Origin: an uncultured Chloroflexia bacterium | GTDB taxonomy: Bacteria; Chloroflexota; Limnocylindria; Limnocylindrales; CSP1-4 | Assembly: GCA_963778955.1 (NCBI GenBank) | Contig: CAVZWI010000001.1 | Location: forward strand, 218,823-282,822 | Length of the DNA stretch: 64,000 nucleotides | Direction of reading: 5' to 3' | In this document: positions 38,937 through 60,919 of the stretch, one piece after another | Layout of the letters: the number at the start of each line of letters is the position of its first letter | Position numbering within the stretch: the first letter of the stretch is position 1 | Notes under the pieces: model-generated | Databases searched by the model: none | What the model was told of the DNA's origin: nothing | The model's input: only the letters and a program-made list of their open reading frames with translations | Position numbers and translations under genes: made by a program

Positions 38937-40319
38937 TCAGTGGCTGAAGTGGGTGCGTTCCACCGACTTGAGAGGCGGGTCGGCCAGCAGGTCGTCTGCG
39001 GCCTTCTTCAGGTCGGCCAGCAGTGCTTCGCCAAGGTCACGGGTGAAGCCCTCGCGCACGACGATCCGCAGCACGACCACGTCGGTGGCGTCGTCCGGCA
39101 TCGTGTAAGCAGGCACCTGCCAGCCGTTGTAGCGGAGGTGGTGGGACACGTCGTAGGCGGTGTAGGGCAGGTCATCGGCCACCGTGAACGAAAGCACCGG
39201 GATGGCGCTGCCATCACTGATGATGGTGAATGGGCCCATCTCAGCGATGGCCTTGGACAGTGTCATGGCGATGGTCTGCAGTGACGTCATCACCTTGGTG
39301 TAGCCGGAGCGGCCGAGCCGGATGAAGTTGTAGTACTGACCCACCACCTGGTTGCCGGGCCGGCTGAAATTGAGCGTGAAGGTGGGCATGTCACCGCCCA
39401 GATAGTTGACGTGGAAGACCAGCTCCTCCGGCAGGTCATCGGCACCGCGCCAGACGACGAAGCCGATGCCGGGGTAGACCAGGCCGTACTTGTGACCCGA
39501 GACGTTGATCGACACCACGTTGGGCAAGCGGAAGTCCCATTCCAGGTCGGGGTGGATGAAGGGCGCCACGAAGCCACCCGAAGCGGCATCGATATGGAGC
39601 GGCACCTGTCGGCCACTGGCCTCGTTGTCAGCCACCAGCGCGTCGTGGATCTCCTTGATGGGCTCGAACTCGCCGGTGTAGGTGGTGCCCAGGATGGCGA
39701 CCACGCCGATGGTGTTCTCATCGATACGCGAGAGCACCTCGTCGGGCGTGATGACGTAGCGACCACGCTCCACCGGCACGTAGCGGGGCTCCACGTCCCA
39801 GTAGCGGCAGAACTTCTCCCATACCACCTGCACATTAGAGCCAAGGATCAGGTTGGGGCGCGAGCCGTCCTGGCCCGCAGCTTCGCGGTGCTGGCGCCAT
39901 TTCCATTTCATGGCCAGGCCGGCGAGCATCACCGCCTCCGAGGAGCCGATGGTGGAGACACCGACGGCATCACCATCGGCTGGCGCGTGGAAGAGGTCGG
40001 CCACGATATTGACGCAGCGCTTTTCGATCTCGGCGGTGGCCGGGTACTCGTCCTTGTCGATCATGTTCTTGTCAAAGGACGCCGCCATCAGAGCGTCGGC
40101 CTGTGGCTCCATCCAGGTGGTCACGAAAGTGGCCAGGTTGAGCCGGGCGTTGCCGTCGAGCATGAGCTCGTCGCTGATGAGACGCTCGACATCGTCCGGC
40201 ATCGACGCTTCATCGGGCAGGCGGTACTTGGGGATGGCACCAAGCGTGATGCGGCTGGTGTAGGCGGGCGCGACTATCTCGCTCTCGACTTCGCGCGTGC
40301 TGAGCTTCTTGACGACCAT
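38937..40319 (-). CDS. gadB: Glutamate decarboxylase (PLP-dependent)
   Basis: LNLATFVTTWME, KNMIDKDEYP, STIGSSEA, HIDAASGGF, SINVSGHKYGLVYPG (PLP lysine) and TFTLNFSRP. Confidence 0.95.
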   Translation of the reverse strand: MVVKKLSTREVESEIVAPAYTSRITLGAIPKYRLPDEASMPDDVERLISDELMLDGNARLNLATFVTTWMEPQADALMAASFDKNMIDKDEYPATAEIEKRCVNIVADLFHAPADGDAVGVSTIGSSEAVMLAGLAMKWKWRQHREAAGQDGSRPNLILGSNVQVVWEKFCRYWDVEPRYVPVERGRYVITPDEVLSRIDENTIGVVAILGTTYTGEFEPIKEIHDALVADNEASGRQVPLHIDAASGGFVAPFIHPDLEWDFRLPNVVSINVSGHKYGLVYPGIGFVVWRGADDLPEELVFHVNYLGGDMPTFTLNFSRPGNQVVGQYYNFIRLGRSGYTKVMTSLQTIAMTLSKAIAEMGPFTIISDGSAIPVLSFTVADDLPYTAYDVSHHLRYNGWQVPAYTMPDDATDVVVLRIVVREGFTRDLGEALLADLKKAADDLLADPPLKSVERTHFSH

Positions 40320-40403
40320 CGTGCTTCTCTCCGTGGCTTTCTTGTGTTCGTACCCTGATGTGATCCAGCGACTACTCGACGTACCGGCGACCGCGAGCTT
40401 CCA

Positions 40404-41276
40404 TCATGCAACAGACGCGTTGCGGGCGATCAGCTCCGCGACCGCGGGAGCCTGGTCCTCCTGCAGGAAGTGCTTGGCCGGAACGACATCGATCGACGTC
40501 AGGCGTGTGGCGGCGAGGGCCATGAAGCCGTACTTGCGAAGGGTCAGCATCGGGTCGAGGCCGCCCCAGACGAGCTTGACCGGGTAGCCCACGCGACGCG
40601 AGTCGATGACGGACTCGATGCGGCTGCGGTCATGACCCTCATGCACGTGGCGCATGATCTCCAGGTAGGTGGCACCCTTGTTCTGGCCCAAAGCAAGGTC
40701 GCGATAGGCCAGCACTTCCGGCATCGGCAGCGCCAGCTGGTCGGCGACGCCGACTCGGTACATCATCTGGCGCCATACCGTGGCAGATGCCATGGGGCCA
40801 CCCACGCCCCTGACAAGGCGAGCCAGGACCTCGCCGGGATACGGCCGGGCGGGCAATCGCACCATCGTGTCGAGGATGGTCAGCGACGCGATGCGATCGG
40901 GCGACTGCGCCACGACCTCGAAGCCCACAGGACCGCCAGCATCATGCAGCACGAGATGGCAGCGATCGACCCCAAGCGTCTCGATCGCGGCCCCTACCCA
41001 CGTGGCCAGTCCCCGGATGCTGTAGTCGAACTCCGTGGGCCGCTCTGCCAATCCCAGCCCGGGCCAATCGAAGCTGAGCGCGCGGAAGCCCCGCGACGCC
41101 AGCTCCGGGATGACCTTGCGGTACAGGAACGACGACGCCGGGAGGCCATGTATGAGCACGACCGGCTCGCCGTCCCCACTTGAGAGCAGGAAGCTCTGGA
41201 CCCCGGCTGCCGTGAAGAAGCTCCCGGCCTCGCGATGGGCTGCGACGACCTCCTTGGCCGCTGTCTCGTCGTTCAA
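40404..41276 (-). CDS. Alpha/beta-hydrolase, haloalkane dehalogenase/epoxide hydrolase-like (Asp nucleophile)
   Basis: LIHGLPASSFLYRK, DWPGLG, LVLHDAGG, WGGLDP and KHFLQED. Confidence 0.85.
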   Translation of the reverse strand: MNDETAAKEVVAAHREAGSFFTAAGVQSFLLSSGDGEPVVLIHGLPASSFLYRKVIPELASRGFRALSFDWPGLGLAERPTEFDYSIRGLATWVGAAIETLGVDRCHLVLHDAGGPVGFEVVAQSPDRIASLTILDTMVRLPARPYPGEVLARLVRGVGGPMASATVWRQMMYRVGVADQLALPMPEVLAYRDLALGQNKGATYLEIMRHVHEGHDRSRIESVIDSRRVGYPVKLVWGGLDPMLTLRKYGFMALAATRLTSIDVVPAKHFLQEDQAPAVAELIARNASVA

Positions 41277-41332
41277 GTGCGGATGCTCCTGCTACTCGGT
41301 GTGCGCCACTGGCTCGAAGATGGCCGGGGTCC

Positions 41333-42987
41333 CTAGGGCTGGACTTGCTCGGGCGCGGTGTCGTACGTCGCGGACCAGACGGCACCGGTGGAGCTGAGCT
41401 GACTCCGACAGTGCCTGCAGGCACTGTCCTGAGAGGAATGACTCGATCGAGCAGTTCTGCCCCTGGGGTGCCGTGAGGCCCATGCCGTTGAACTGCGTGA
41501 CCTGGGCGGAGGGCGGATCGTGCGGCAGCGGCAGGGTCGGGTCCGTCGACTGCGGGCAGGGTGCACCGGCTGTGACGGAGTTGGGACTCAGCGAGTCCGG
41601 CCACGTATCGTTGGGCCCCTTCTCACGGACGACCAGCAGGTTGGGCGCCTTGTTGTTCTGGACCCCGCTGCGAAGGATGTTCCAGCCGTTCGCCTTGACC
41701 ACCGCGTCGATCTTCTCGACCTGTTGGCTGGTGGCCGACTGCGGGTAGAGCACGATCGTGGCGCTGCCGTCGGCGTTGAGCTCGATCTGGCGGTTGCCGA
41801 TTCTGCGTGTTCTTGACGGTGCCCAGCGCATCGAGCTGCTTGGTTGCGCCGTAGACAACGACGCTGTAGAAGCGCAGGTCGTACTGGTCAGAGTCGTTGA
41901 CCGTGGAGGCCGTCGCGCCCCGGTAGTCGGGGAACGTCGGCACCTGGGGGATGTGCACCATCGAGACCACGTCGTTGGGCAGGTTGGCCATGACGTAGCC
42001 ACCACAGGCGTCGGGCGGATCACTCGTGGGCGGTGCTGCTGCGACATCAGCGTACGGAGAGTTGGCCGCGACGTTCCGGTAGAACTGGACTTGCTCCGGG
42101 ACAGGCGCGGGTGCGAACTCCCCGCCGAGGAAGCCAGCCACCGAACCGGTCTGCAGCTTGAAGCGCGGGACGTTGGCCAGGTCGTCACTGGTCGGACGAG
42201 GCGCCTTGACGAAGGTGAGGACCGGCTTGCCCGTGACCGGGTCGTACGCGATGCGCTTGGGCACCTGGCTCTGGGAGGCGCAGTCGTCGACAGGCGTGTC
42301 GGTGATCTCGCCGGTATCGGGGTCCGTCAGGAACGCGGCGATGGTGTGGACGGGCGAGTCGGTGGGCCCGCCATAGCCGAAACGATCCCAATCGCCGAGG
42401 TCGTCGTTGGAAAGCGACCAGTAGCTGCGAAAGACGAAGGACGTACCCTTGGTGCTGCCGATCTCGGGCAGGACGGCCACGTTCTCACCCGCCTCCTGCA
42501 TGGCGGTGATGACGCTATCGGGTGTGTCATTCGGCATGACCGTGATCTTGTAGTTGCGCTCTGGAGCCAGGATGGGTTGGCCCGACACGAAGGGGTTGGT
42601 GGAGCCGGGCTCCGGGATGATGTCCTGGTCGGACAGCTTGAACAGCGGCTGCCCCTTGGTGTTGTACAGGTACCAGGACATCCAGTAGGAATAGGGGAAC
42701 TCACCGCTGATCACATAGGCCCAGTCAGCGGTGTCATCGTTCAGCTTCTGGCCGGCGAGAGTGTAGCCGGCCGAGAAGCTTGGCTGCACGGGGTAGAAGT
42801 CGGCGGAGGATGCGTCCAGCACCTGCGGGCACAGGTTGCCCGCAGGGACCGAGCCGCCACTGTCGGTGGATGCGGCCGGCGGCGACGGGTCGGCTGCCGT
42901 GGCGGGCACTGCCGACAGGGCGAGCAGCAGCACCGCCGAAGCGGTGAGGGCGAACGATCGGTGGCCTGCTGGCCGAATCCTGCGCAT
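41333..42987 (-). CDS. Secreted protein, possibly DUF1214-like at the C-terminus (two apparent +1 frameshifts, at about 41801 and 41402)
   Basis: Signal peptide MRRIRPAGHRSFALTASAVLLLALSAVPATA; GEFPYSYWMSWYLY...DIIPEPGSTNPF; FYSVVVYG and IELNADGSATIVL. Span 1655 nt equals 551 codons plus 2. Confidence 0.7.
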
Positions 42988-43076
42988 GGTGTCTGTTTCC
43001 CTTCGATGCGACGCCGAGGCCCGGCACGTACTGCACGTGGTACTTGGCATTGAGACATGCGTGTCAGGGCGCGGCA

Positions 43077-43093
43077 TCATCCCATCCGCATGA
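43077..43093. promoter_or_regulatory. Inverted MalT-box-like site 1 (TCATCC-CATCC-GCATGA)
   Basis: About 90 nt upstream of the secreted-protein gene; one of six copies. Confidence 0.7.
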
Positions 43094-43118
43094 GAACAGG
43101 CTGACGTCGACGCGCCGC

Positions 43119-45368
43119 TCAGGCGCCGCGGGCAGCCTCGGGGCTCGCGGTGGGCGCAGGCTCCACTTCGCCCCTGCGCTGGCCCATGACGCCAAGGACG
43201 GTTCGCCACGTCGATGCCACGACGAGCGCAGGTCGCCGCACGACACCGATGGCCGGAACGACGATGAACATGCCCGGGATGCCCGCCACCGCGGACCCGG
43301 CCGGGATGGCCACCAGCACGATGGCCGGATGGATGTGCACGGTCTTGCCGTACACGATCGGGCTCACGATATTGCCGGTCACGATGTTGAACACCAGCGT
43401 CCAGATGGCCATGATCACGATGTCCGTCTGTGAGCCCACGGCGATGGTGATGAGGAAGGCGATACCGGTCGAGAGGAAGCCGCCGATATAGGGGATGAAG
43501 CCCAGGAAGAAGGAGAGCACGAAGACGGGCAGGGCCAGCGGCAGACCCAGCACGACCATGATCACGAACTGGCTGGCCGCACCCACGAACGAGATGGCCG
43601 CGGTCCCGATCATGTAGCCACCGAGCACCTCGAATGCGCGGCTGGCGGCGGCGTTGACCTCGTCGAGCGTACCCGGTCGCAAGCGCGAGATGGCACGGCC
43701 CCACAGCTCGCCACCGTCGCGCAGGAAGTAGAACGTGAGCAAGGTGCTCAGCAGGACGATGACGGCGGCCCCGGCGAGTGATTCACCGACCTGGGTGAGC
43801 GTCTTCACCATGCCGGCAAGACCACCCGCGGCGGCGGCGGCCGGGATCTGGGCATGACCGCCCAGCGCGTCGTTGGCGGCACGCACGCCGGCATTGACAC
43901 CGTCGGAGAGCTCCCCGACCTGTTCGACGAGCGAGACGACGGTCAGGGCGAGGATGGCGCCGATGGCGAGGAATCCGCCACCGACGGTGATGGCGGCGGC
44001 GCGAGATCGTGCATGGCCGCGCCGCATCAGCGACTGTACGAGCGGGTCGAGGGTCGCTGTGAGCACGAGCCCCAGGACGACGGGGATCAGGACCAGCGGG
44101 ATGGCGGTGAAGACGACGACGGCAAGCGCGATGAGCGCGATGGCCACGAGCAGCCGCCAGCTGGATTGCGCCATGCGGTCAAGCCACGCCGGCACCAACC
44201 CGGGCAGGTCCGGTGGCGGGTCCGGATCGACGACGGCCACCACTGCGCCTGCGACCGCCAGGACCACGGCGGTCACGGGCACGGCCACGAAGAGACCGAT
44301 GACGCCGGCCAGCTGGAACCCCGCGGGGAGAGCGATGAGCACGATGGCCGGGTGGATGTTGACGGTGCGGCCGTAGATCATGGGCCGCACACCGTAGCCA
44401 AGCACCAGGTTGCGCAGCCCGATGAGCGCCAGCATCACGAGCGTCGGCCCGGTGCCCAGGGCGGCCAGTGTCACGAGCAGCACGACGAGGGTGGCGATGA
44501 TGCCGCCGAAGTAGGGGATGTACCCGCCCAGGAAGACGAGCATGGCCAGCGGGACGGCCAGCGGTACCCCCAACACCCACATGAACAGCAGGTCGCTGAG
44601 GGCCACCAGCGCGGCCAGGACGGTGGTGCCTCGCAGGTAGCCACCGACCCGGGCCAGGGCATCGTCGCCGGCCCCGGTGATGCGTTCCCGCTTCTGTTCA
44701 CTGGCCTCCTGGAACAGCCACAGCCATGCCTTGTCGCCATCACGCAGGAAGAAGAAGATCAGGAACGTCGCCAGGATCCCGATCGTGGCGAGCTCACCGG
44801 CAGCCGCCACGAGCCCACCGCCATCGTGGCCAACGGCGTCGCGGACGATGCCGATCAGATCATGCGCGATGGTGCTGACGAATGCGGGGACCTGCAGGTC
44901 CGCCAGGCTGGTCTGAAGCTGGCTGAGACCCGCGTCGATACGGGTCAGGAGCTCAGCCAGATACGGCAGGAACGCGGCCACCAGGAGGAGCAGGACGCCG
45001 CCGATGCTGACCACCGCGGCGGCCCAGACGATGGCCGCTGAAGCCGTCCTCGATCGGCCGCCGTCGCGCAGCCGCAGGACCAGGGGCGCGAAGACCGCCG
45101 AGACGATGATGGCGACCAGGATGGAGGCCGTGACCGTCCACAGGGTGGCGGTGATGGCGCCAAGCACCAACAGGAAGCCGGCGACGGCCAGGATGCGCCA
45201 GCCGAGCGCGGCCAGGTTGACCAGCCAATCAGGGACGAGCTGGGGAGCAGTGACCGAATGGGCGGTGGAAGCAGCGACCTGGCCGGCCCCTGAAACCTCC
45301 GGACCGAGCGGCGGGCGGGCGTGGCTGCCCACCTCGTCGCTCGCTGATCGTTCCGTCGGACCGGCCAT
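43119..45368 (-). CDS. AI-2E family transporter with two tandem AI-2E domains
   Basis: Duplicated motif sets: FFFLRDG...GYLRG...IPYFG...YGRTVNIHP and FYFLRDG...GYMIG...IPYIG...YGKTVHIHP. Confidence 0.88.
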   Translation of the reverse strand: MAGPTERSASDEVGSHARPPLGPEVSGAGQVAASTAHSVTAPQLVPDWLVNLAALGWRILAVAGFLLVLGAITATLWTVTASILVAIIVSAVFAPLVLRLRDGGRSRTASAAIVWAAAVVSIGGVLLLLVAAFLPYLAELLTRIDAGLSQLQTSLADLQVPAFVSTIAHDLIGIVRDAVGHDGGGLVAAAGELATIGILATFLIFFFLRDGDKAWLWLFQEASEQKRERITGAGDDALARVGGYLRGTTVLAALVALSDLLFMWVLGVPLAVPLAMLVFLGGYIPYFGGIIATLVVLLVTLAALGTGPTLVMLALIGLRNLVLGYGVRPMIYGRTVNIHPAIVLIALPAGFQLAGVIGLFVAVPVTAVVLAVAGAVVAVVDPDPPPDLPGLVPAWLDRMAQSSWRLLVAIALIALAVVVFTAIPLVLIPVVLGLVLTATLDPLVQSLMRRGHARSRAAAITVGGGFLAIGAILALTVVSLVEQVGELSDGVNAGVRAANDALGGHAQIPAAAAAGGLAGMVKTLTQVGESLAGAAVIVLLSTLLTFYFLRDGGELWGRAISRLRPGTLDEVNAAASRAFEVLGGYMIGTAAISFVGAASQFVIMVVLGLPLALPVFVLSFFLGFIPYIGGFLSTGIAFLITIAVGSQTDIVIMAIWTLVFNIVTGNIVSPIVYGKTVHIHPAIVLVAIPAGSAVAGIPGMFIVVPAIGVVRRPALVVASTWRTVLGVMGQRRGEVEPAPTASPEAARGA

Positions 45369-45405
45369 GGCTCCTCCGCTGGGGGCTAACGTGGGGTCCG
45401 GGTGA

Positions 45406-45585
45406 CTAGAAGCGGCGGCGCCCCGGGGTGACGGCAGCGCCTACCACGGCCGCCTTGGCGACGGGGGAGGGACCGGGCTTGACGGCAGCGCCCACGACCG
45501 CCGCCTTGGCGACGGGGGAGGGACCGGGCTTGACGGCAGCGGTCACGACCGCGGCCTTGGCGACACGAGATGGTCTGAGCGGCAT
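45406..45585 (-). CDS. 59-aa tandem-repeat microprotein (not in the ORF track)
   Basis: TAAGGAG Shine-Dalgarno overlapping the upstream stop, ATG 45585, translation MPLRPSRVAKAAVVTAAVKPGPSPVAKAAVVGAAVKPGPSPVAKAAVVGAAVTPGRRRF*, TAG at 45406-45408. Confidence 0.75.
   Translation of the reverse strand: MPLRPSRVAKAAVVTAAVKPGPSPVAKAAVVGAAVKPGPSPVAKAAVVGAAVTPGRRRF
45429..45562. repeat. 51-bp tandem repeat, about 2.6 copies
   Basis: Units start at 45429, 45480 and 45531 (TGACGGCAGCG...GCCTTGGCGAC...); differences fall mostly at third codon positions of the minus-strand frame. Confidence 0.9.
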
Positions 45586-45595
45586 ATCAAGCTCC

Positions 45596-46045
45596 TTACG
45601 CTTCGGCCGCCGCGTCGGCTTCGACGGCGGCGATGATGGCCTGGATGGGGATGCGGCCGTCAGCGATCAGCTGGCCGCCGGCGCGACGGACCGATGACGC
45701 GAACGGTGCCGCCCACAGATTCTCATAGATAAGGACACCGGCCACGCTGCCGGGAGCCATGGCCTCAGCGAGGGTCGCGACGTCGTCCGCAGCGAGCGTT
45801 TCGACGAGCTGTTCTTCGATGTGCTCAAGCTCGCCGAGCTCAGCAAGATCGGAGACCTCATCGGCCTCGAAGGAGCCGTCCTCGTCCTTGACGATGATGA
45901 CCAGGTCCATGATACGGATGGTTCCCGCATCGTGAAGCTTGACCAGCTCGGTCACGCTCTCACCGGTGAAATTCTGGTGACCGGCGGGGAATTCGACGAT
46001 CAGGTAGTCGACGGGCCCCAACTCGTCGATCGATCTCTCGGTCAT
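45596..46045 (-). CDS. DUF6325-like protein
   Basis: LGPVDYLIVEFP...IRIMDLVIIVKDEDG...GVLIYENLWAAPF...GGQLIADGRIP; GAAAGGAAAG before ATG 46045. Confidence 0.8.
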   Translation of the reverse strand: MTERSIDELGPVDYLIVEFPAGHQNFTGESVTELVKLHDAGTIRIMDLVIIVKDEDGSFEADEVSDLAELGELEHIEEQLVETLAADDVATLAEAMAPGSVAGVLIYENLWAAPFASSVRRAGGQLIADGRIPIQAIIAAVEADAAAEA

Positions 46046-46120
46046 GCTCTTTCCTTTCGATGTGGCCGATTTGCCCGCCACTGGCAGGCACGATTGACGC
46101 ACGACACGAACGGCATCGCA

Positions 46121-46137
46121 TCATCCGGACTGGATGA
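46121..46137. promoter_or_regulatory. Inverted MalT-box-like site 2 (TCATCC-GGACT-GGATGA)
   Basis: Perfect inverted hexamers 75 nt upstream of the DUF6325-like ATG. Confidence 0.8.
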
Positions 46138-46258
46138 CACGGACAGTATGGCCGACCTGGCCGGTCGAATCGCGGAGCATCGGCTATCCGAAGCGGTCCA
46201 GACACGCTCAGCCGTCCGGCATGCTGGCGCGGTGGAGCGCCTCGGAACCTGGGCCGGA

Positions 46259-49163: not shown

Positions 49164-49250
49164 CGGATCGAACCTCCAAGATCGCCGGTCCGGGCGAAGA
49201 TCCGCTACCGGCGGGTATCGGTGGCGATCGGTCTTCCGCCACCAGGGTCG

Positions 49251-49790
49251 TCAGTCTCGCGCGGCAACCAGCGCCGTGTGCGCTTCGGCCTCCTCGGCCG
49301 TCATCAGGCCGATGGCAACCAGGTCGACGGGATCGATGAAGCCTTCGTCGATCCTGAAGCCACCCGCGCGGCCAAGCGCGTCCCGCAGTGGCACCGCCCA
49401 ATGGTGCTCGATGAGCAGCAGGGCCGCGGCCGAATCGCGCGGGATGCTGGCCACGACGTCCCAGGCATCCTCTTCGGTGAAGACCCCGGCGTCCGTGCTG
49501 GCCGCATACTCGGCTCCAAGCTCGGCTCCGCTCTCTGCGCCCTCCTCGCCGGCGTACCCGAGCCCGATCAGCGCACCGATCTTGGAACCGAGCTCGATCG
49601 ACTCGTCCTCGCTGAGGTTGCCCAGGCGCATGCTGGCGACATCGCCGTCGGCACTCTTGACGACCGTGAGGCTGTCGATGAGACGGATCGTATCCGACTC
49701 GCGGAGTCGTTCGATCTCGTCGAGGACCTCGCCCTGGAAGTCCGGGTGGTCAAAGCCGATCACGAGCAGCTGGATGGGTCCGATGGCCAT
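49251..49790 (-). CDS. Second DUF6325/DUF1269-like protein
   Basis: MAIGPIQLLVIGF...IRLIDSLTVVKSADG...ALLLIEHHWAVPLRDAL; AAGGAGG Shine-Dalgarno. Confidence 0.78.
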   Translation of the reverse strand: MAIGPIQLLVIGFDHPDFQGEVLDEIERLRESDTIRLIDSLTVVKSADGDVASMRLGNLSEDESIELGSKIGALIGLGYAGEEGAESGAELGAEYAASTDAGVFTEEDAWDVVASIPRDSAAALLLIEHHWAVPLRDALGRAGGFRIDEGFIDPVDLVAIGLMTAEEAEAHTALVAARD

Positions 49791-50026
49791 GATGTGTGTC
49801 CTCCTTGGGTTGGCGATGGGGATCTTGACCGGCTGGCAGCCGGGCAGCGGGGGGCCGCCTACGGTGCGGCAGACTCAACGGCCGTCTGGGCGTCCGCCGC
49901 GACCGATTCGACTGCCTCGGCAGCAGCGGAGGCCGCCTCCTGGGCCTCGACGAGGCCGCACTGTGCGGTACCGGCCTGGACTCCGGCCTTCTGGCGAGAC
50001 CATAGGTCGCACGCAGCGCAGCGCCA

Positions 50027-50043
50027 TCATCCGTTCTGGATGA
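50027..50043. promoter_or_regulatory. Inverted MalT-box-like site 3 (TCATCC-GTTCT-GGATGA)
   Basis: Perfect inverted hexamers between the divergent DUF6325-like and BASS genes. Confidence 0.8.
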
Positions 50044-50093
50044 TTTCACGGCCGCGAGTTGAGGAACGCCTGAGCCGCCGGTACAGTCCACCT

Positions 50094-51023
50094 GTGCCCG
50101 ATACCTCCTTCTTGCAGCCGCTACTGGAGGCGGCAGTGACGCCGCTCATCGCGTTCACGCTGTGGACGGCCGGCCTGGGCATGGGCATGTCCATCCAGGC
50201 GGCGGACATCATCGAGTCCCTGGGCCGGCGCCGACTCGTGGCCGGCACGATCGTGCTGGACATCGCCCTGGTGCCGTTCGCCATGTGGGCGATGATCCAG
50301 CTGCTGCAGATCGAGGATGGCCTCGCCACTGGCCTGCTCCTCGTCGCGTTCGCCTCGGCTGGGCCACTGGGGATCAAGCTGGCAGCCGTGGCGGGCGCCG
50401 ATACGGCATACGCCATCGGCATCGTGGTGGCCCTCGAGCTCGCCAACATCGTGATCGTGCCCGCGTGGGTATCGTTGCTGGGTGTCGCGACCGGCAGCGA
50501 GGTCGTCATCGAGATCATCGTGGCGCTGGTCGTGTTCGTGCTGTTGCCGATCGGCGTCGGGCAGGCGATCGGTCGCATCAGACGGGGTGGGTCAGAGAGG
50601 TTCGTCTCCCTGGCGGTGCGGGCCTCCAGCGTCGGTCTTGCGCTCACCATCGCGACCATCGTCGCGCGCGACATCCAGGTCGTCTCGACGGCCATCGCGA
50701 GCGCGGCCGGGCTGGCCGCTGCAGCCGTCGTCGGCTTCGCCCTGGTGGCAGGCTGGTTCATCGGCGGGCCGGAGCGGCCGACCAAGCTCGCCACGAGCCT
50801 GGTCACCGGCACGCGTGCGAACGCGGTCGCGTTGGCTGTCGCCTCCACCGCCTTCGCGGCCGACCCGCAGGTCCTCACGGGGGCCCTGACAGCCGGGCTG
50901 GTCTCGATCACCCTGCCCGGCCTGCTGGCCGTGGTGGTCCGCCGATGGCGGGGGTCGCCGGTGCCGGCGGCTCAGCGACCCGGGAAGCGCCGCGGGGCGG
51001 ACCCGGCCAGCCCCAGCCGCTGA
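50094..51023 (+). CDS. Bile acid:Na+ symporter (BASS/ACR3-like) family transporter
   Basis: GLGMGMS, ALVPFAMW, GLLLVAFASAGP, A(D)TAYAIGIV and SLVTGTRANAVAL; about 9 TM segments. GTG start at 50094 is inferred. Confidence 0.78.
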   Translation: MPDTSFLQPLLEAAVTPLIAFTLWTAGLGMGMSIQAADIIESLGRRRLVAGTIVLDIALVPFAMWAMIQLLQIEDGLATGLLLVAFASAGPLGIKLAAVAGADTAYAIGIVVALELANIVIVPAWVSLLGVATGSEVVIEIIVALVVFVLLPIGVGQAIGRIRRGGSERFVSLAVRASSVGLALTIATIVARDIQVVSTAIASAAGLAAAAVVGFALVAGWFIGGPERPTKLATSLVTGTRANAVALAVASTAFAADPQVLTGALTAGLVSITLPGLLAVVVRRWRGSPVPAAQRPGKRRGADPASPSR

Positions 51024-51032
51024 GGATCTTCC

Positions 51033-51332
51033 TTAGCCGTTGAGGATCTTCTGCTTCTGCGTCGCGAACTCCTCGTCGGTGAGGGCACCCGATTCGTGCA
51101 GGGTCGCAAGCTTCTGGATCTCGGCGATCTTGGCATCCATCGGGTCGGCGGCCGACGGCGGCGCCTGGGGGGCCGCGGCTTGCGCCTGCGCCAGCCCGGC
51201 TTCGTATGCGGCCTGTTGGTCCGCCGCCGACTGCGCCTGGTACTGCTGCTCCATCTGCTGTTCGTGATGGCGCGCGACCGCAGCGCCGGCAACCATGCCA
51301 CGTCGGCGCATGCGCCGTCCTCGTCCCAACAT
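51033..51332 (-). CDS. SHOCT-domain small protein with an Arg/Gly N-terminus and Gln/Ala linker
   Basis: C-terminal IAEIQKLATLHESGALTDEEFATQKQKIL matches SHOCT; AAGGAG Shine-Dalgarno. Confidence 0.88.
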   Translation of the reverse strand: MLGRGRRMRRRGMVAGAAVARHHEQQMEQQYQAQSAADQQAAYEAGLAQAQAAAPQAPPSAADPMDAKIAEIQKLATLHESGALTDEEFATQKQKILNG

Positions 51333-51451
51333 GGGTCTTCTCCTTGCGATACATCGGATGGCGGATCATCCATGGCCGTCGGCCCGTCTGTTCGGATCGG
51401 GCAGTGCTGACGGCTACTCGCCCCACCATAGGGCGGCACACTCGGAGGGCC

Positions 51452-51468
51452 TCATCCGGAATGGATGA
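51452..51468. promoter_or_regulatory. Inverted MalT-box-like site 4 (TCATCC-GGAAT-GGATGA)
   Basis: Perfect inverted hexamers about 120 nt upstream of the SHOCT gene. Confidence 0.8.
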
Positions 51469-51604
51469 ACCGCCAGGCACAACGTACCGGCAGGGCTGAC
51501 GAGCTCGGGCCGCGGCACGAGGCAGGAGCCCTGACCGCGGGCATGGCCGAACCCGCGGAGCCGGGCTCGCGCAGCCGAGCGCGTCGCCTCAGGGGCCGGC
51601 GGAG

Positions 51605-52039
51605 CTACCGATTCCTGTTGCCGCGGGGCGATCCCGGTAGCGGCTGCCTCGGGATACCCTCGAAGGCCCCATCGAGGTCGTATCCGACCGAGGCAGCGAC
51701 CAACGGCGCCGCCGTAACGACCCGCGCCGTGCCCACCGCGGGGGCGACCGCCAGCAGCACATCGACGACGTCCTCGGCCGTGGCACCCGCCCCGAAGGCG
51801 GCCGCCACGGCGGCGTCGATGGCCGCAGATCCCGCGTCGATAGCGATGAGTGCCCCAAGGATGACCAGCCGGCGTGTGCGATCGTCGAGGATGTGCGCCT
51901 TGTCATCCACGTCACCTGCTCGCCGGACACCGACGTACTCCCCCATCATCGCGGCCACCAAGGCCTCGTCATTCAACGCGAGACGCCGGAGCGTTTCCTC
52001 GTAGCCTGGAGGCTGCTGGTGTTGCGTCGATCGAGTCAT
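51605..52039 (-). CDS. Carboxymuconolactone decarboxylase/AhpD-like protein without CxxC
   Basis: LDDRTRRLVILGALIAIDA...AAFGAGATAEDVVDVLLAVAPAVGTARV; contains no Cys. Confidence 0.7.
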   Translation of the reverse strand: MTRSTQHQQPPGYEETLRRLALNDEALVAAMMGEYVGVRRAGDVDDKAHILDDRTRRLVILGALIAIDAGSAAIDAAVAAAFGAGATAEDVVDVLLAVAPAVGTARVVTAAPLVAASVGYDLDGAFEGIPRQPLPGSPRGNRNR

Positions 52040-52119
52040 CGTCGGGAGACACACTCCACGAAGCGCCGTGTCACCCGGGAGGGAACACTGACCGTCCCAT
52101 TGGACCGCCCAGGACAGGC

Positions 52120-54408
52120 TCACGCATCATCCCGACGGGGTGAAACCCCGACTGTCCTGGCCGTCGAGGTGGTCACCCAGCTCGCCGCGTCCAGCACGCT
52201 CGGAACAGCCGCGGGGTCCAAAAGGCCGAAGCGCACGGCCGCGACCACCGCTTCCGAGCGCGAGGAGGCGCCCAGCTTGCGGTAGATGGCGAGAGCTTGT
52301 GTCTTCACCGTGTTGGGCGAAAGGAACAGCCGCTCACCGATCTCCCGGAATGAAAGATGGGTCGCCAGCCAGGGCACCAGGCGAAGCTCGGCGTCCGTCA
52401 GGGCAGACGCACCTGACGCCGACTCTAAGTGAGTCGATACCTGCTCCTTCAGCCGTCGCGTTTCGTCCTCCAGCGCGCCCATCCCGGGCCGACGCCGCAG
52501 GATGTCGCTGGCCTCGCGCAAGAGCAGGCGCGCGGCGGTCGCATCGGCCAAGGCAAGGTGCGCCTGGGCCAGGTCCAGGCGAGCGATGAGCGCGGGCCCC
52601 GGAATGGCCCACGTCAGCAGTGGCCGCACCGTCTGGGCATGGGCAAGGTAGGAACGAGCCAGGGCGAGATCGGCGTCGGCAGTGATGGCCAGGCGCGCCA
52701 GGAGTGCGTCGAACATCGCCTGCATGCCCTGGCCGCCGATACCGTTACGGGCGCGCAACCGTGCCGCCTGTTCAAGGTGCTGCCTGGCGCCCCCCAGGTC
52801 ACCCGCGTCGAGCAGTCCTCTCGCCAGCAGGGCGTAGGCGATCGAGCGCGAGTTGGCATCGGGGCCCTGGGGCCGGTATGGATCGACGACCTCGAGCAAG
52901 GCGGCCTCGCTCTCGGCGGGCCGGCCGTTCATCATCTGGCACAGCCCCAGCGTGGTCAGCGCAGCGCCCCGCCAGGGGCTCCCGCTCCCGATCAGCTCAC
53001 AGGCACGGAGGGCATCCGTCAGTGCGGCGGATGCGCCCGACCGACAGGCGACCGCCGACGCGAGGGCACTCCACCCGGTGCTCTCCTTGCGACCGCCGGC
53101 AGCCGCGTCGTGGAGGGATCGCGCCCAGCGTTCGGCACGCTCTCCTTCCCCGCCGAACGCCAGGACGAAATGCCCGGACATGGCCAGGAGTGGATCGCGG
53201 CGAACCAGGTCGGACTCCTCCGCCCAGTCCAGCCAACGTCGCACCGTGGGCGTGCGGCCGGCGTTGAAGGTGGGCTGCACGAACATGCGGATGAGCCGCG
53301 ACGTGATGTCGTCGTTGCCTGACTCCATGGCGTAGCTGACCGCCTCCACGGGATCGTCATGCAGGGCATACCACTCAGCGGTGCGGCCGCGCAATGTCGC
53401 CAGCAGGTCTGGGTCCGTGCGGTTCAGCTCAGCCGAGAGTGCTTCGCGGAACATGTCGTGGTAGCGGTAGTGATCGCCCTGCACACGCGTCACGAAGGCG
53501 TTGGAGTCGCAGAGCCGGCCGAGCAGGATGGCTGAGCCGCTCCGCTCAAGCACAGCGTCACAGAGGGGTGCGGAGAGCTCCCGCAGGACGGAGGTCCGGA
53601 GCAGGAAGTCGACCTCGTCGGTCGACATGCGCGAGAGGACCTCCGAGTGGATGTACTGACCGAGCAGATCGCGCCCGCGCGACGGCTGGCGACTGGGCGC
53701 CCGAGCGGGATCACCCATGGCGCTGAGAAGCAGCCCGCTGACCCAACCCTCGCAGGCCTGGTTGAGCTGAGCGCCTTGCCCCGCAGCCATCTCGATGCCA
53801 GAGGTGCGCAGCAGCTCCCGGGCCTCGTCATCTGAGAGCCTGAGCTGGTCGACACCGATCTCCACGATGCGTCGTTCCAGGTGGAGCCTGGGCCCGGCCA
53901 GCCCCGTCGCCGCGCGACCGGCGATGACGAGCTGCGACCCCGCGGGCACCTGCAGCGCCAGCGAGTTGACCACATCCAGGCACTCGGGTTCGCTGATCTC
54001 GTGGATGTCATCGATGACCTGGATGAACGGCGACCTCTTCGTCAGCTCAGCGGAGATGCGTGGCATGAGCCGCGACCAGATCGAGGCCGTGGGCATCTCA
54101 AGCGCTTCCTCGATGGCGCGAGCCGATGGCCAGGCTTCCAGGATGGCGAGGGCGATACTGGTGGCCAGAGTCATCGGATCGTTGTCGCGTCGATCGAGCG
54201 ACAGCCACACGACCGGCAGGTCGGCGGACCCGACCCAGCTGTGAAGTAGCGTCGACTTGCCGTATCCGGCTGGTGCGATGACGGTGACGACCCCAGCCTC
54301 CAGCGGATCGGGCCTGAGGCCGAGCAGGCGCTCCCTGGCCACGAGTCGTCGTCGGACCGTGGGCGGCTGCAACTTGGTGACAGCCGAGGGCGATACGATC
54401 GTGGTCAA
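52120..54408 (-). CDS. MalT-like STAND ATPase with a C-terminal LuxR HTH (transcriptional activator)
   Basis: TKLQPP..RRRLVARERL, P-loop APAGYGKST, WLSLDRRDND, Walker B VIDDIH, CEGWVSGL, YRYHDMF, TPR-like helical region, and HTH LTDAELRLVPWLATHLSFREIGERLFLSPNTVKTQALAIYRKLG. Start codon uncertain. Confidence 0.92.
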   Translation of the reverse strand: MTTIVSPSAVTKLQPPTVRRRLVARERLLGLRPDPLEAGVVTVIAPAGYGKSTLLHSWVGSADLPVVWLSLDRRDNDPMTLATSIALAILEAWPSARAIEEALEMPTASIWSRLMPRISAELTKRSPFIQVIDDIHEISEPECLDVVNSLALQVPAGSQLVIAGRAATGLAGPRLHLERRIVEIGVDQLRLSDDEARELLRTSGIEMAAGQGAQLNQACEGWVSGLLLSAMGDPARAPSRQPSRGRDLLGQYIHSEVLSRMSTDEVDFLLRTSVLRELSAPLCDAVLERSGSAILLGRLCDSNAFVTRVQGDHYRYHDMFREALSAELNRTDPDLLATLRGRTAEWYALHDDPVEAVSYAMESGNDDITSRLIRMFVQPTFNAGRTPTVRRWLDWAEESDLVRRDPLLAMSGHFVLAFGGEGERAERWARSLHDAAAGGRKESTGWSALASAVACRSGASAALTDALRACELIGSGSPWRGAALTTLGLCQMMNGRPAESEAALLEVVDPYRPQGPDANSRSIAYALLARGLLDAGDLGGARQHLEQAARLRARNGIGGQGMQAMFDALLARLAITADADLALARSYLAHAQTVRPLLTWAIPGPALIARLDLAQAHLALADATAARLLLREASDILRRRPGMGALEDETRRLKEQVSTHLESASGASALTDAELRLVPWLATHLSFREIGERLFLSPNTVKTQALAIYRKLGASSRSEAVVAAVRFGLLDPAAVPSVLDAASWVTTSTARTVGVSPRRDDA
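52127..52143. promoter_or_regulatory. Inverted MalT-box-like site 5 (TCATCC-CGACG-GGGTGA), inside the last codons of the regulator gene
   Basis: One mismatch; 88 nt upstream of the CMD-like ATG. Confidence 0.65.
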
Positions 54409-54493
54409 CGCGAGCCGAGCAATTTGACACCCTCGAGATGAGTGGACGCCAATGGGGACCGTAGCACGCATACTATGGCCGATGATTGCGGTT

Positions 54494-54510
54494 TCATCCC
54501 TTTCGGATGT
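54494..54510. promoter_or_regulatory. Inverted MalT-box-like site 6 (TCATCC-CTTTC-GGATGT)
   Basis: One mismatch; lies between the divergent regulator and holin-phosphodiesterase genes. Confidence 0.7.
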
Positions 54511-54615
54511 CGCGTGATCGACGCACGAAACCGAGAGTATCGATAGCGATCTCGCAACAGCATTGGATGGAACGTCGGACATGAGGCAGCGCCCTGACCC
54601 CGGTCTTCAGCTCCC

Positions 54616-56778
54616 ATGAACAGCCTGAACAAGCTCGTCGCACTCTATCGAACGCAGATCGGGCTGCTGTGGCACTGGCGCCTGGGCCGTGGTGCGCTCG
54701 TCAAGCGAGCACTCATCTCCCTGGTCGCGGCCCTCATCGCCTTCTGGCTCACGGCCTGGCTCGTGCCGGGCCTCCTGGAGATCACCGAGCTCGGCGGCGG
54801 TCTGCTTGCGATCCTGTTCATCAGTGCCCTCAACCTGCTGGTGCGCCCGGCCCTGCTGGTGCTGGTGGCCGGACGCTTCGTGCTGCTGGTGATCGCGACA
54901 CTGCTCTTCCAGGCGCTCGTCATCTGGTTGCTCACGCCGCTCGTCCCGGGCGTCACGGTGGAGGGCGGCATCCTCGGCGCCCTGCTGGTGTCGTTCATCC
55001 TTGGCTTCTTCACCGGCGCCGCCGGTATCCTCTTCGGCCTGGGTGAGGACGACTCCTACTACGGCGCGCTCGTGCGCACGCTGGCCACGCGCCGGGACGA
55101 CGTCATCCACAGCGACGAACCCGGACTCATCATCATCCAGGTCGACGGGCTGTCGCACGATGTCCTGTCGCATTCGCTGCGCGCGGGACGCGTGCCCTAC
55201 CTCAGCCGCCTGGTCCGCTCGGGAAGCCACAAGCTCGCCCACTGGACGGCGCTGCTGCCGTCGACGACACCGGCCAGCCAGGCCGGCATCCTGCATGGCA
55301 ACAACGACGGCATCCCCAACTTCCGCTGGTACGAGAAGGAGACCGGGCAGCTGCTGGTGGCCAACCATCCCGAGGACGCGACCGTCATCGAGTCTCGCAT
55401 CTCGAATGGCGAGGGCCTGCTGAGCCCGGGCGGCGCCAGCATCAGCAACATCTTCACCGGGGACGGCGACCGCGCCTTCCTGGTGATGTCCACCATCAAG
55501 GTCAAGGAGCGCGGCCTGGGCCAGTCCAACGCGTTCGCGCACTACTTCGCGAGCCCCTACAACTACCTCACCATGCTGGCGCAATACCTTGCCGAGGTGG
55601 TCAAGGAGAACATCCAGTCGCGGCGCCAGACCCGTGCCGGCATCGAACCACGGATGCATCGAGGCTTCCCCTACCCCTGGGTGCGTGGCGCGACCAATGT
55701 GGCCCTGCGTGCGCTGGGCACGTCACTGATCATCGAAGAGATGATGCGCGGCACGCCCGTCGTCTACATGGACTACACCGACTACGACGAGATCGCGCAC
55801 CACAGCGGACCCGAGCGCGCCGAGTCGCTCGACGCGCTCGACGGCGTGGACCGCGAGCTGGCGACGCTGGCCAAGGCGGCCGGGGACGCGCCGCGACCCT
55901 ATCGCTTCGTCTACCTCGCTGACCATGGCCAGAGCCTGGGGGCCACATTCCTGCAGCGTTACGGCGTGACCTTGCAGGACGTGGTGCGTTCGCTCATGGG
56001 CGGAACGGCTTCGGTGGCTGCCGCGACCGCGCAGATCGAGGACTGGGGCCCGCTCAACACGTTCCTCAGCGAAGTCGGCCAGACAGACAGCGTGGCCGGC
56101 TCGGTCACCCGCACCGCGACGCGCCACCGCAGCAAGGACGGCCAGGTCGACCTCGGGCCCGACCAAGGGTTCGTGGTCGAGGGCACGAGCGCTGACACCA
56201 AGGCAGGGTCCGGCGAGGACGAGCCCGCGGACCTCATCGTGGTCGCCGGCGGCAACCTCGCGCTGGTGTACTTCACCGCCATCGACGGGCGCGCCGACTT
56301 GCAGCAGATCGAGGCGGCCTATCCCGACCTCGTGGACGCGCTCGCCAACCATCCGGGTATCGGCGTGCTCATCGTGCGCTCGGACGCCCACGGGCTGCTG
56401 GCTGTCGGCGGCGGCGGCATCCACTACCTCGACGAGGACCGCGTCGAAGGCGTCGACCCGCTCGCCGTCTATGGCGAGCATGCGTCCGCAGCCGTGCGGC
56501 GGCTCGACGAGATCGAGCATGTCGGCGACCTCGCGGTCATCAGCACCTATGACCCCGAGACCGGCGATATCGCCGCCTTCGAGGAGCTCATCGGCGCCCA
56601 CGGCGGGCTCGGTGGACCGCAGACCAAGCCGTTCCTGTTGCATCCGGCCGACTGGGAGCTGGACCTCGCGCCGCTCCTTGGTGCACCGATGGTCTACAAG
56701 CAGCTCCGGCACTGGATGGAGGACGAGCTGGGTATGACCTTCGGGCCTCAGCCCGGACGAGACGACGCGACAACCTGA
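54616..56778 (+). CDS. Fusion of a 4-TM phage-holin-like (superfamily IV-type) domain and an alkaline-phosphatase-superfamily phosphodiesterase domain
   Basis: N-terminal TM block (LVAALIAFWLTAWLVPG...LNLLVRPAL...NTLLFQ-like IATLLFQ...PGVTVEGG...ALLVS); C-terminal IQVDGLS, LPSTTPASQAGILHG, DYDEIAHH and ADHGQ. Confidence 0.82.
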   Translation: MNSLNKLVALYRTQIGLLWHWRLGRGALVKRALISLVAALIAFWLTAWLVPGLLEITELGGGLLAILFISALNLLVRPALLVLVAGRFVLLVIATLLFQALVIWLLTPLVPGVTVEGGILGALLVSFILGFFTGAAGILFGLGEDDSYYGALVRTLATRRDDVIHSDEPGLIIIQVDGLSHDVLSHSLRAGRVPYLSRLVRSGSHKLAHWTALLPSTTPASQAGILHGNNDGIPNFRWYEKETGQLLVANHPEDATVIESRISNGEGLLSPGGASISNIFTGDGDRAFLVMSTIKVKERGLGQSNAFAHYFASPYNYLTMLAQYLAEVVKENIQSRRQTRAGIEPRMHRGFPYPWVRGATNVALRALGTSLIIEEMMRGTPVVYMDYTDYDEIAHHSGPERAESLDALDGVDRELATLAKAAGDAPRPYRFVYLADHGQSLGATFLQRYGVTLQDVVRSLMGGTASVAAATAQIEDWGPLNTFLSEVGQTDSVAGSVTRTATRHRSKDGQVDLGPDQGFVVEGTSADTKAGSGEDEPADLIVVAGGNLALVYFTAIDGRADLQQIEAAYPDLVDALANHPGIGVLIVRSDAHGLLAVGGGGIHYLDEDRVEGVDPLAVYGEHASAAVRRLDEIEHVGDLAVISTYDPETGDIAAFEELIGAHGGLGGPQTKPFLLHPADWELDLAPLLGAPMVYKQLRHWMEDELGMTFGPQPGRDDATT

Positions 56779-56809
56779 GCCCTTCCACACCGTGGGAACT
56801 CAAGAACCC

Positions 56810-57535
56810 TCAGGTTGACGTTTCAGCTTCTTCTACCGGCGCGGGGTCGCTTGCCGGGGCCAGGAACAGGTTGGCGAGAAAGCCGGTGAGGGTGCCGAAG
56901 ACGCCGACCCCGACGATGATGATCATCGAGCCGATGACTCGTCCGGCGTTGGTGACTGGATACTGGTCGCCGTAGCCGACGGTCGACATGGTGACGATCA
57001 TGTACCACAGCGAGTCAGCGGCCGTGGTGATGTTCGCCGCCGGACTGCTGCGCTCCACGGCAAGGATGGCCAGGCTGCCGAACTCCATCACCAGGATGGC
57101 GATGAGGAAGACCAGCAGCAATCCGCCCGTGGCCCGGTTTCTGAAGAACGCTGTCACCGCAGCCCCCAGCCCACCCATGCGGCCGACCACGCGGACGACA
57201 CGGAAGATGCGCAGGATGCGGGCGATCCGGAGCGCCGGGATGATGCTGATGGCGTCGAGCCAACCACGCCCCTTGGTGAAGTAGGCGCGGTTGTCGTCAG
57301 CCACGTTGAGGCGTCGGAGCAGGTCGACCGCGAAGATGACGACGAGGATCAGGTCCATGATGGTGATGATCTGATCCAGGTCGGGATTGCGGATGAGGAG
57401 CGCCAGGACCAGGTTGACGATGGAGAGGATGGCGACCGCCAGCACGAAGATCTCCCAGGGCATGGAGAGCAGGACCTGGCCGTCTTCGGACTGCGTGCCC
57501 CAGTGGTCGCGATCAGGGGTCTGTTGGGATGTCAT
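56810..57535 (-). CDS. Voltage-gated-type potassium channel (6-TM ion transporter)
   Basis: Selectivity filter TMSTVGYGD; S4 helix LRIARILRIFRVVRVVGR; no C-terminal RCK domain. Confidence 0.88.
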   Translation of the reverse strand: MTSQQTPDRDHWGTQSEDGQVLLSMPWEIFVLAVAILSIVNLVLALLIRNPDLDQIITIMDLILVVIFAVDLLRRLNVADDNRAYFTKGRGWLDAISIIPALRIARILRIFRVVRVVGRMGGLGAAVTAFFRNRATGGLLLVFLIAILVMEFGSLAILAVERSSPAANITTAADSLWYMIVTMSTVGYGDQYPVTNAGRVIGSMIIIVGVGVFGTLTGFLANLFLAPASDPAPVEEAETST

Positions 57536-60800: not shown

Positions 60801-60881
60801 CTGAACTCGCCGACCAGCTCGTGCCATCGATACCCTCGTTCCTCCGACTCCCCATCCTAGCGGCCCGGTCTCATATCCTGC

Positions 60882-60919
60882 TTGACGTCCTTACATGCGC
60901 TTGCATACAATCGCTTGCA
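60882..60919 (+). promoter_or_regulatory. araA promoter with two tandem LacI-type operators
   Basis: TTGACG at 60882-60887 and TACAAT at 60906-60911 (18-nt spacer). TACATGCGCTTGCA (60892-60905) and TACAATCGCTTGCA (60906-60919) each have a central CG. Confidence 0.75.

Follow-up and report, generated by a model that had tools for sequence, protein, structure and literature searches.

We describe here a gene block at positions 38,937 to 57,535 of a 64,000-nucleotide stretch of DNA (hereafter the window; contig CAVZWI010000001.1, assembly GCA_963778955.1) from an uncultured Chloroflexia bacterium. The block, about 18 kb long, is probably a local regulon under a MalT-type STAND/LAL transcription activator encoded within it, with target genes marked by repeated copies of one palindromic operator, TCATCC-N5-GGATGA. 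At the sequence level the window matches a maltose-regulated island described in Actinoplanes in motif, predicted promoter geometry, regulator type and much of its cargo. This type of regulon has thus already been published; the Chloroflexota host and a recurrent target, a sulfatase fused to a DUF1269 module, are new here.

The clustering of operator sites ties the block together. Counting sites with at most one mismatch and taking the expectation from base composition, we found six copies within 11.4 kb, three exact and three with one mismatch, against about 0.07 expected per 64 kb, and no further such site in the window. The 3.25-Mb assembly contains 12 sites by the same count; eight of them fall into two clusters, and the remaining four, scattered singly, match the chance expectation of about 3.7. 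The six sites of the block, with the genes that they appear to serve and the nearest -10-like hexamers, are as follows.

43077..43093: operator 1, one mismatch; serves the secreted protein, hydrolase and gad genes, with TCAATG 23 nt past GGATGA on the minus strand.
46121..46137: operator 2, exact; serves the DUF6325a, microprotein and AI-2E transporter genes, with TCAATC 23 nt past the motif on the minus strand.
50027..50043: operator 3, exact; serves the DUF6325b and sulfatase genes and possibly the divergent SBF transporter gene, with TATGGT 22 nt past the motif on the minus strand.
51452..51468: operator 4, exact; serves the SHOCT gene, with TATGGT 21 nt past the motif on the minus strand.
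52127..52143: operator 5, TCATCC...GGGGTGA, one mismatch; serves the CMD-like gene, with CAATGG 24 nt past the motif on the minus strand.
54494..54510: operator 6, one mismatch; placed between the divergently oriented regulator and holin-phosphodiesterase genes.

At five of the sites, a -10-like hexamer stands 21–24 nt past GGATGA (TATGGT twice, TCAATG, TCAATC and CAATGG), which suggests that the palindrome occupies the -35 position; transcription is predicted to start 33–37 nt away from the palindrome's 3' end. Operator 6 is followed by TAGTAT at 18 nt on its minus side and by GAGTAT at 24 nt on its plus side. On the plus side of operator 3, no convincing -10 box was found at the proper distance, and membership of the SBF gene in the regulon is uncertain for this reason. 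Operator 2 is retained in two related loci, L013 and L035, and operator 5 overlaps the final codons of the regulator gene. We rejected a model of repression, since the sites take the -35 position, ahead of the -10 box, and leave the start itself uncovered, and since the genetics of the Actinoplanes island show activation. Other readers of palindromes (DosR, CsoR/RicR, ClgR, BldD and SigF-type promoters) were also considered and set aside: their consensus sequences and spacings do not fit. The predicted leader of the DUF6325b-sulfatase operon (49791-49993) is unusually long, at about 200 nt, and has no coding signal; a search of Rfam over 36–60 kb gave no match, and hence no known riboswitch was found in this leader.

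The regulator itself is assigned to the MalT-like STAND/LAL proteins from its domain order and alignments. Residues 25-382 can be aligned to the E. coli MalT NTPase domain (PDB 8BOB, E 1e-24), including the Walker A (GYGKST) and Walker B (VIDD) motifs, and are followed by TPR_12 and TPR_19 repeats at 521-610 and a GerE helix-turn-helix at 727-782. The score against the NF003420 MalT model (E 1.2e-50, 172.5 bits) is far under the equivalog cut-off of 537 bits, and naming by Pfam and NCBIfam revealed no mal genes behind the operator sites; on these grounds the protein is MalT-like and not a MalT orthologue. With E. coli and Klebsiella MalT it shares the arrangement of STAND NTPase, helical-repeat sensor and GerE domain, a GGA(T/G)GA core at -35 and the presumed role of activator. 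It differs in that MalT reads arrays of asymmetric boxes, whereas the sites in the window are perfect inverted repeats with a 5-nt spacer, and in that the regulon here lacks maltose or maltodextrin genes.

The same genome contains a second cluster of sites, at a locus that repeats part of this arrangement.

C1:740186-749606: second regulon locus, with exact operators at 740706 and 743679, 3 kb apart.

It encodes a DUF6325a paralogue (79% identical) followed by an identical 59-aa microprotein, together with a divergent second MalT-like regulator that is 34% identical to the first. Past the second site lie a truncated 63-aa DUF6325-like open reading frame (ORF), a P-type ATPase, a short ORF resembling a fragment of PPK2, and a SulP transporter, and one of the two sites has TAGCGT 22 nt past the motif. 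Both MalT-like paralogues of the genome have an operator in their own upstream region.

The published counterpart is the 51-gene 'maltose-regulated large genomic region', or MRLGR (ACSP50_3900-3950), of Actinoplanes sp. SE50/110 (Droste et al. 2020; PMC7567727). There, 17 mapped promoters have a -35 box overlapped by the motif 5'-TCATCC-5nt-GGATGA-3', whose 3' end is 34.4 +/- 1.0 nt from the transcription start (PMC7567727). Deletion of the MalT-like gene ACSP50_3915 lowers transcription of 42 of the 51 genes and its overexpression raises that of at least 39, so that 40–42 genes count as activated by it; genes of maltose metabolism are unaffected (PMC7567727). The half-site GGATGA corresponds to the core MalT box, GGA(T/G)GA (PMC7567727). 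Table S3 of that study includes a SHOCT protein, three DUF1269 proteins, a DUF308 protein and two MalT-like regulators, and also AI-2E, a metallophosphoesterase, the arginine deiminase pathway, M48, ThrE, BrkB/YihY, MFS and amino-acid permeases; the island ends with a MalT-dependent aminopeptidase P, ACSP50_3950 (PMC7567727). Gene order is scrambled among four other Micromonosporaceae, and relatives of the island add DUF2252 and ppk2 (PMC7567727). Our literature search found no follow-up work on the MRLGR, and a search for GGATGA with LuxR or STAND regulators gave nothing relevant.

The likeness between the two islands extends over several features. The operator is identical, with an overlap of the -35 box that was measured in Actinoplanes and is predicted from sequence here; both islands encode a MalT-like LuxR/STAND activator, with a second MalT-like paralogue in each case; SHOCT, DUF1269, AI-2E, aminopeptidase P, a phosphoesterase and many small membrane proteins are common cargo; and gene order is reshuffled between the relatives of both. 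The differences concern host, scale and content. The Actinoplanes island belongs to the Micromonosporaceae and the present one, by record titles, to the Chloroflexota, and there are 17 mapped promoters and 51 genes in the former compared with 6 sites and about 15 genes plus a second locus in the latter. The MRLGR table does not name the DUF1269-sulfatase, DUF6325 and microprotein, Gad, holin-phosphodiesterase, K+ channel or CMD-like protein of the window (many of its entries are hypothetical), and the arginine deiminase operon and glucosidase/amylase of the MRLGR are absent from the window block. The Actinoplanes regulator is neighboured by a membrane-protein gene, and that of the window by the CMD-like gene.

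The operator also recurs in more distant genomes. Using a relaxed motif (TCAYCC-N5-GGRTGA, at most one mismatch) within 400 bp upstream of sulfatase orthologues, we recovered it at 23 of 75 loci, compared with about one locus expected from a background of 0.012 per 400 bp, and the sulfatase is therefore a recurrent target of the operator across phyla. In six distant genomes, exact sites numbered 2–18 each (0–2 for a control pattern) and were clustered, and four of the six such clusters that we fetched, from five of these genomes, encode a MalT-like regulator. Jointly, the islands that we fetched hold DUF6325, DUF7144, SHOCT, holin-phosphodiesterase, DUF2252 and a CMD-like gene adjoining the regulator, along with M24, ThrE, BrkB, AI-2E, MFS, amino-acid permeases, a pyridoxal phosphate-dependent decarboxylase, a Na+/H+ exchanger and GH15; holin-phosphodiesterase homologues are present in the motif islands L103 and L106. 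The half-site in the Actinomycetes examined (G061-G065) is mostly TCACCC/GGGTGA and not TCATCC/GGATGA. In N. sediminis, 8 exact sites lie within 22 kb (C1:689231-711478), about 30 kb from the sulfatase orthologue.

Three observations weigh against reading the block as a MalT-type regulon. About half of the motif-carrying sulfatase loci have no MalT-like regulator within 10 kb, and for these we assume that the cognate regulator lies elsewhere; the regulator of the window is only 26–32% identical to those of the actinomycete islands; and the -10 boxes were assigned by eye in a phylum, the Chloroflexota, whose promoters are poorly known. The first of these would also fit a different arrangement, in which another widely conserved regulator, encoded elsewhere, reads the palindrome and the MalT-like gene is a target or an unrelated neighbour. 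It is also in keeping with the recognition helices of motif-associated regulators, whose comparison showed a generic GerE pattern from which specificity cannot be read. Such an arrangement nevertheless seems highly improbable to us, given that deletion and overexpression of the MalT-like gene in Actinoplanes control motif-bearing promoters, that the motif contains the MalT box core, that each of the present genome's two site clusters includes a MalT-like gene whose own promoter region carries a site, and that the distant motif-dense islands hold such a gene in the proportion given above. We infer that the MalT-like regulator binds and activates at the operators in this organism also.

Gene calls within the window, which is 68% G+C and was for this reason analysed through third-position GC, and names from Pfam and NCBIfam gave the following content.

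36266..37714, minus strand: aminopeptidase P (AMP_N and Peptidase_M24, by Pfam), 3' of gad.
38937..40319, minus strand: glutamate decarboxylase Gad (TIGR01788, 673 bits against a cut-off of 380; PF00282).
40404..41276, minus strand: alpha/beta hydrolase (Abhydrolase_1, E 5e-24) with the nucleophile elbow HDAGG.
41292..42987, minus strand: secreted protein of about 560 aa with a signal-peptide-like N-terminus and a frameshift near 41803-41816.
43119..45368, minus strand: tandem (double) AI-2E transporter of 749 aa (PF01594 in two matched stretches, E 9e-80).
45406..45585, minus strand: 59-aa microprotein with three 17-aa repeats (tandem repeat period of 51 nt).
45596..46045, minus strand: DUF6325 protein of the a-type, 149 aa (PF19850, 25.2 bits against a cut-off of 23.4).
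45960..49163, minus strand: DUF1269 module, Cys-type sulfatase and C-terminal domain (PF00884, 224 bits; PF06897, 41 bits).
49251..49790, minus strand: DUF6325-like protein of the b-type with a Gly-rich insert (PF19850, 20.1 bits, under the cut-off of 23.4).
50094..51023, plus strand: SBF/BASS transporter (PF01758), with a GTG start read from the sequence.
51033..51332, minus strand: SHOCT small protein of 99 aa (PF09851, E 2.4e-9, 37 bits against a cut-off of 27).
51605..52039, minus strand: CMD/AhpD-like protein without Cys (PF02627, E 3e-8).
52120..~54400 (start approximate), minus strand: MalT-like STAND/LAL regulator (AAA_22, TPR_12, GerE).
54616..56778, plus strand: fusion of Phage_holin_4_2 (four transmembrane segments) and Phosphodiest (type I phosphodiesterase/NPP), by Pfam.
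56810..57535, minus strand: voltage-gated-type K+ channel (Ion_trans, Ion_trans_2) with a TVGYG filter and an S4-like helix, without an operator of its own.

An earlier sequence-only reading of this DNA had listed the genes of the block, placed eleven of them, from gad to the regulator, on the minus strand, counted six copies of one operator and proposed that the whole is tied into one regulon by the MalT-like STAND regulator. All of the named genes are present, the strand assignment and the operator count are confirmed, and the single regulon is supported.

These data suggest a mechanism in which the regulator would bind ATP and, through its TPR sensor, a ligand, and would then bind the palindrome as a dimer. 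With the palindrome in place of the -35 box, the bound regulator would recruit RNA polymerase and turn on five or six transcription units. The first would comprise the secreted protein, the Asp-hydrolase and Gad, probably continuing to aminopeptidase P; the second, DUF6325a, the microprotein and the double AI-2E transporter; the third, DUF6325b and the DUF1269-sulfatase; the fourth and fifth, the SHOCT and CMD-like genes, respectively; and the sixth, the regulator itself and, divergently, the holin-phosphodiesterase.

Several of these units receive additional detail from related loci. The adjacency of gad and the M24 gene is retained in L014, L025 and L035, and aminopeptidase P, which falls beyond the limits that the sequence-only reading set for the block, is a probable distal member of the gad operon, its membership here being predicted. 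Between these two genes (37714-38845), coding-looking ORF pieces on the minus strand at 38122-38845 and 37714-38121 are in different frames; they have no Pfam match and may be one frameshifted gene. The elbow of the hydrolase reads HDAGG, which makes an Asp nucleophile plausible. The secreted protein had zero Pfam matches, and its frameshift is visible by tblastn with an intact 553-aa orthologue, which aligns in one frame in L013 and in two in the window; the gene is broken elsewhere along its length in L025, and the frameshift here may be either a long-read assembly error or real, independent decay. The microprotein, conserved in L013, L025, L031 and L035, is translationally coupled to DUF6325a. 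The regulator-CMD pair recurs in L018, L021, L031, L045 and L106, and the CMD-like protein may be a regulatory partner of the regulator. A Cys-less CMD/AhpD-like gene also stands beside a MalT-like regulator in L086, with the operator often between the two genes or before the CMD gene. Homologues of the K+ channel adjoin the sulfatase in L015, L018, L021, L031 and L081. The right flank of the block (57659-63600) encodes a thiamine pyrophosphate-dependent decarboxylase-like enzyme, a LacI-family regulator, an L-arabinose isomerase and a sugar-binding protein, which we place outside the regulon because the operator is absent there.

DUF6325b is the first gene of the sulfatase operon, and its orthologues adjoin the sulfatase in several loci. 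In an alignment, the protein matches the a-type at the conserved GP, D, E and WA positions. An AlphaFold2 model of DUF6325a, built from a 21-sequence alignment, reached a pLDDT of 74, and a Foldseek search of this model against the PDB returned nothing significant (best E 0.015, TM at most 0.30). No paper mentioning DUF6325 was found in a literature search; of the five papers found that mention DUF1269, none by title concerns its function.

The sulfatase is the most conserved target of the regulon and looks catalytically intact, as judged from its active-site motif and its alignment. The Cys-type motif CSPTR lies at residue 257, and residues 210-688 align with the P. aeruginosa arylsulfatase AtsA/PAS (1HDH, E 4e-59), with which it shares the CxPxR motif; it differs from that enzyme in an added N-terminal DUF1269 module with a glycine zipper and a C-terminal domain of about 280 aa, for which a sequence search gave no solved relative. 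The M. tuberculosis protein AtsB (Rv3299c), of about 970 aa, has a similar length, and the literature found on Rv3299c consisted of gene lists only. The N-terminal DUF1269 module resembles a DUF6325 fold interrupted by the glycine zipper. No signal peptide was found in the sulfatase, and this absence, together with the soluble DUF1269 module and its glycine zipper, points to a cytoplasmic enzyme held at the membrane. No formylglycine-generating enzyme was found in the assembly, which is 84% complete, and an anaerobic sulfatase maturase orthologue (60% identity) is encoded about 100 kb away, at C1:363457-364752.

The copy in the window also carries a deletion. Its ORF, running to 45960, has 1067 aa, and orthologues with 64–96% identity end near residue 970; the native protein is predicted to have about 970 aa, its final 95 or so codons here being a read-through over operator 2, because a stretch of about 1.5 kb was lost together with the native stop. 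The scar, at 46143..46261, retains about 120 bp where L013, L035 and L025 carry about 1.5 kb (blastn), and the L035 version of the missing stretch contains a CLC chloride-channel gene (Voltage_CLC domain).

The conservation and apparent integrity of the sulfatase (CSPTR, PAS-like) bear on a catabolic interpretation of the block, in which the SBF transporter would take up an anionic amphiphile (a steroid, bile-type or lipid sulfate) for desulfation or dephosphorylation by the sulfatase or the phosphodiesterase, and Gad and the K+ channel would compensate pH and membrane potential. In favour of this are also the maturase, SulP-STAS and SfLAP/Sap-like genes among the neighbours of sulfatase orthologues and the maturase orthologue in the host genome. 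Much of the remaining evidence points elsewhere: the enzyme seems to face the cytoplasm; the block has neither a binding protein nor genes that would degrade a carbon skeleton; of all the units, only the SBF gene lacks convincing promoter geometry; the Actinoplanes regulon, under the same operator, lists no sulfatase; and the cargo varies widely across genomes, with ion channels and transporters dominating. Uptake and desulfation of this kind, one of two functions put forward in the sequence-only reading, is accordingly disfavoured and appears very unlikely.

The distribution of these genes indicates that the regulon varies greatly in composition. Only the nearest relatives, L013 (with a sulfatase 96% identical) and L025, retain the entire block, and L014 and L035 lack several genes. 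Orthologues of the sulfatase, about 970 aa long and 68–81% identical, are common in metagenome-assembled genomes (MAGs) titled Chloroflexia, Thermoleophilia, Solirubrobacterales and Gaiellales, and occur in cultured Actinomycetes (Terrabacter, Pedococcus, Nocardioides, Nostocoides, Fodinibacter, Longivirga and Rhodococcus marinonascens) and, at 69–71% identity, in Mycobacterium MAGs. A few are in bins labelled Alphaproteobacteria, Myxococcota, Acidobacteriota or Methanobacteriota, where either transfer or mis-binning may be responsible. Around the distant orthologues the other genes of the window are mostly absent, and the same families return in altered order. Among 80 sulfatase loci, the neighbours included DUF6325 of the a and b types (22), anaerobic sulfatase maturase (20), SulP-STAS (19), DUF2252 and a MalT-like regulator (16 each), a Na+/H+ exchanger (14), SfLAP/Sap-like 'sulfolipid-addressing' membrane proteins (11), DUF7144 (10), holin-phosphodiesterase and AI-2E (8 each), stand-alone DUF1269 (7), and MIP and CLC (6 each). 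When 79 sulfatases were placed in a quick tree, those labelled Chloroflexia fell into two distinct clades, nested on short branches within the Actinomycetota (labels are submitters' titles, and bins can mix genomes). This pattern suggests transfer across phyla, with at least the sulfatase having apparently passed between Actinomycetota and Chloroflexota.

These comparisons revise a further claim of the sequence-only reading, which had offered the block as the best candidate in the window for an undescribed system. The same operator, regulator type and kind of island have in fact been published for Actinoplanes (PMC7567727); neighbourhood comparison finds the 18-kb unit only in the nearest relatives, with reshuffling elsewhere; and the host is labelled Chloroflexota, not Actinomycetota. 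The statement that similar gene sets recur in Actinomycetota without an assigned function is, by contrast, supported. For the Actinoplanes island, the authors considered the function unclear and did not find a common pathway (PMC7567727).

The cargo is accessory and reshuffled between genomes, and it is reasonable to ask whether it has any single function. The 'system' could be a regulon and nothing else, a loose, horizontally assembled set of accessory genes under a common activator. Order and content change even within the genus, the complete block is as restricted as described above, no common pathway emerged in Actinoplanes, and the two Chloroflexia clades in the sulfatase tree suggest transfer; all of this would be expected of such a set. 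Set against it is the recurrence with the motif, across phyla, of DUF6325 with the microprotein or SHOCT, and of DUF1269, DUF7144, DUF2252, holin-phosphodiesterase and AI-2E. Since uncharacterised families recur with the motif in this way, we argue for a shared selective context, and regard an assemblage without a single function as somewhat unlikely.

As to what that context may be, we tentatively suggest, from gene content only, that the regulon has a role in conditional homeostasis of ions, pH and the envelope under acid, osmotic or non-growth stress and is not a catabolic pathway. This reading is favoured because membrane traffic of ions, protons and water is the commonest theme of the islands. 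Gad, CLC, K+ channels or TrkH, Na+/H+ exchangers, MscL, aquaporin, P-type ATPases, SulP and small membrane proteins (DUF1269, DUF6325, DUF7144 and SHOCT) are recurrent cargo, to which Actinoplanes adds the arginine deiminase pathway. The second function proposed in the sequence-only reading, a membrane-stress or dormancy response built on small membrane proteins, fits this comparative gene content better than the catabolic one does, although confidence in any particular role stays low. By analogy only, the arrangement resembles the E. coli acid fitness island, in which the LuxR-family activator GadE governs glutamate decarboxylase and small inner-membrane proteins (HdeD/DUF308-like), and the ClC-dependent decarboxylase acid resistance of E. 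coli, given that sister islands repeatedly contain CLC, the arginine deiminase pathway and Na+/H+ exchangers. The regulator and operator of the acid fitness island are not homologous to those of the window, which also lacks a GadC-type antiporter.

Some evidence counts against a role in homeostasis. The MRLGR is induced on maltose and through growth, and under none of the stresses tested (PMC7567727). A Glu/GABA antiporter is absent from the window cluster.

A more specific and more speculative version of the homeostasis reading, which we think unlikely, would have the regulon be a programme of soil bacteria that moves horizontally and across phyla, with the membrane-tethered AtsB-like sulfatase and the DUF6325, DUF1269, SHOCT and microprotein components as its core. 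Its STAND sensor would read an internal sugar derived from alpha-glucan or trehalose (maltose or a maltooligosaccharide) as a signal of osmolyte and storage status, and the programme would reset ion, pH and envelope homeostasis when cells enter or leave dormancy, as in desiccation and rewetting or acid stress. If true, this would provide a first function for half a dozen large DUF families and for the mycobacterial AtsB-type sulfatases.

The regulon is far wider than the four Micromonosporaceae genomes of its description, and is seen in Chloroflexota-labelled MAGs, Thermoleophilia, Gaiellales, Nocardioides sediminis, Pedococcus cremeus, Nostocoides and Fodinibacter. As cultured carriers of motif islands exist, among them Nocardioides sediminis KCTC 19271, Pedococcus cremeus CGMCC 1.6963 and Fodinibacter luteus JCM 17809, the function of the island is experimentally testable, and the shared operator offers a computational handle for reconstructing the regulon genome by genome. 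The operator links DUF6325, DUF1269, DUF7144, DUF2252, the SHOCT partners, the holin-phosphodiesterase fusion and the AtsB-like sulfatases to one regulatory context.

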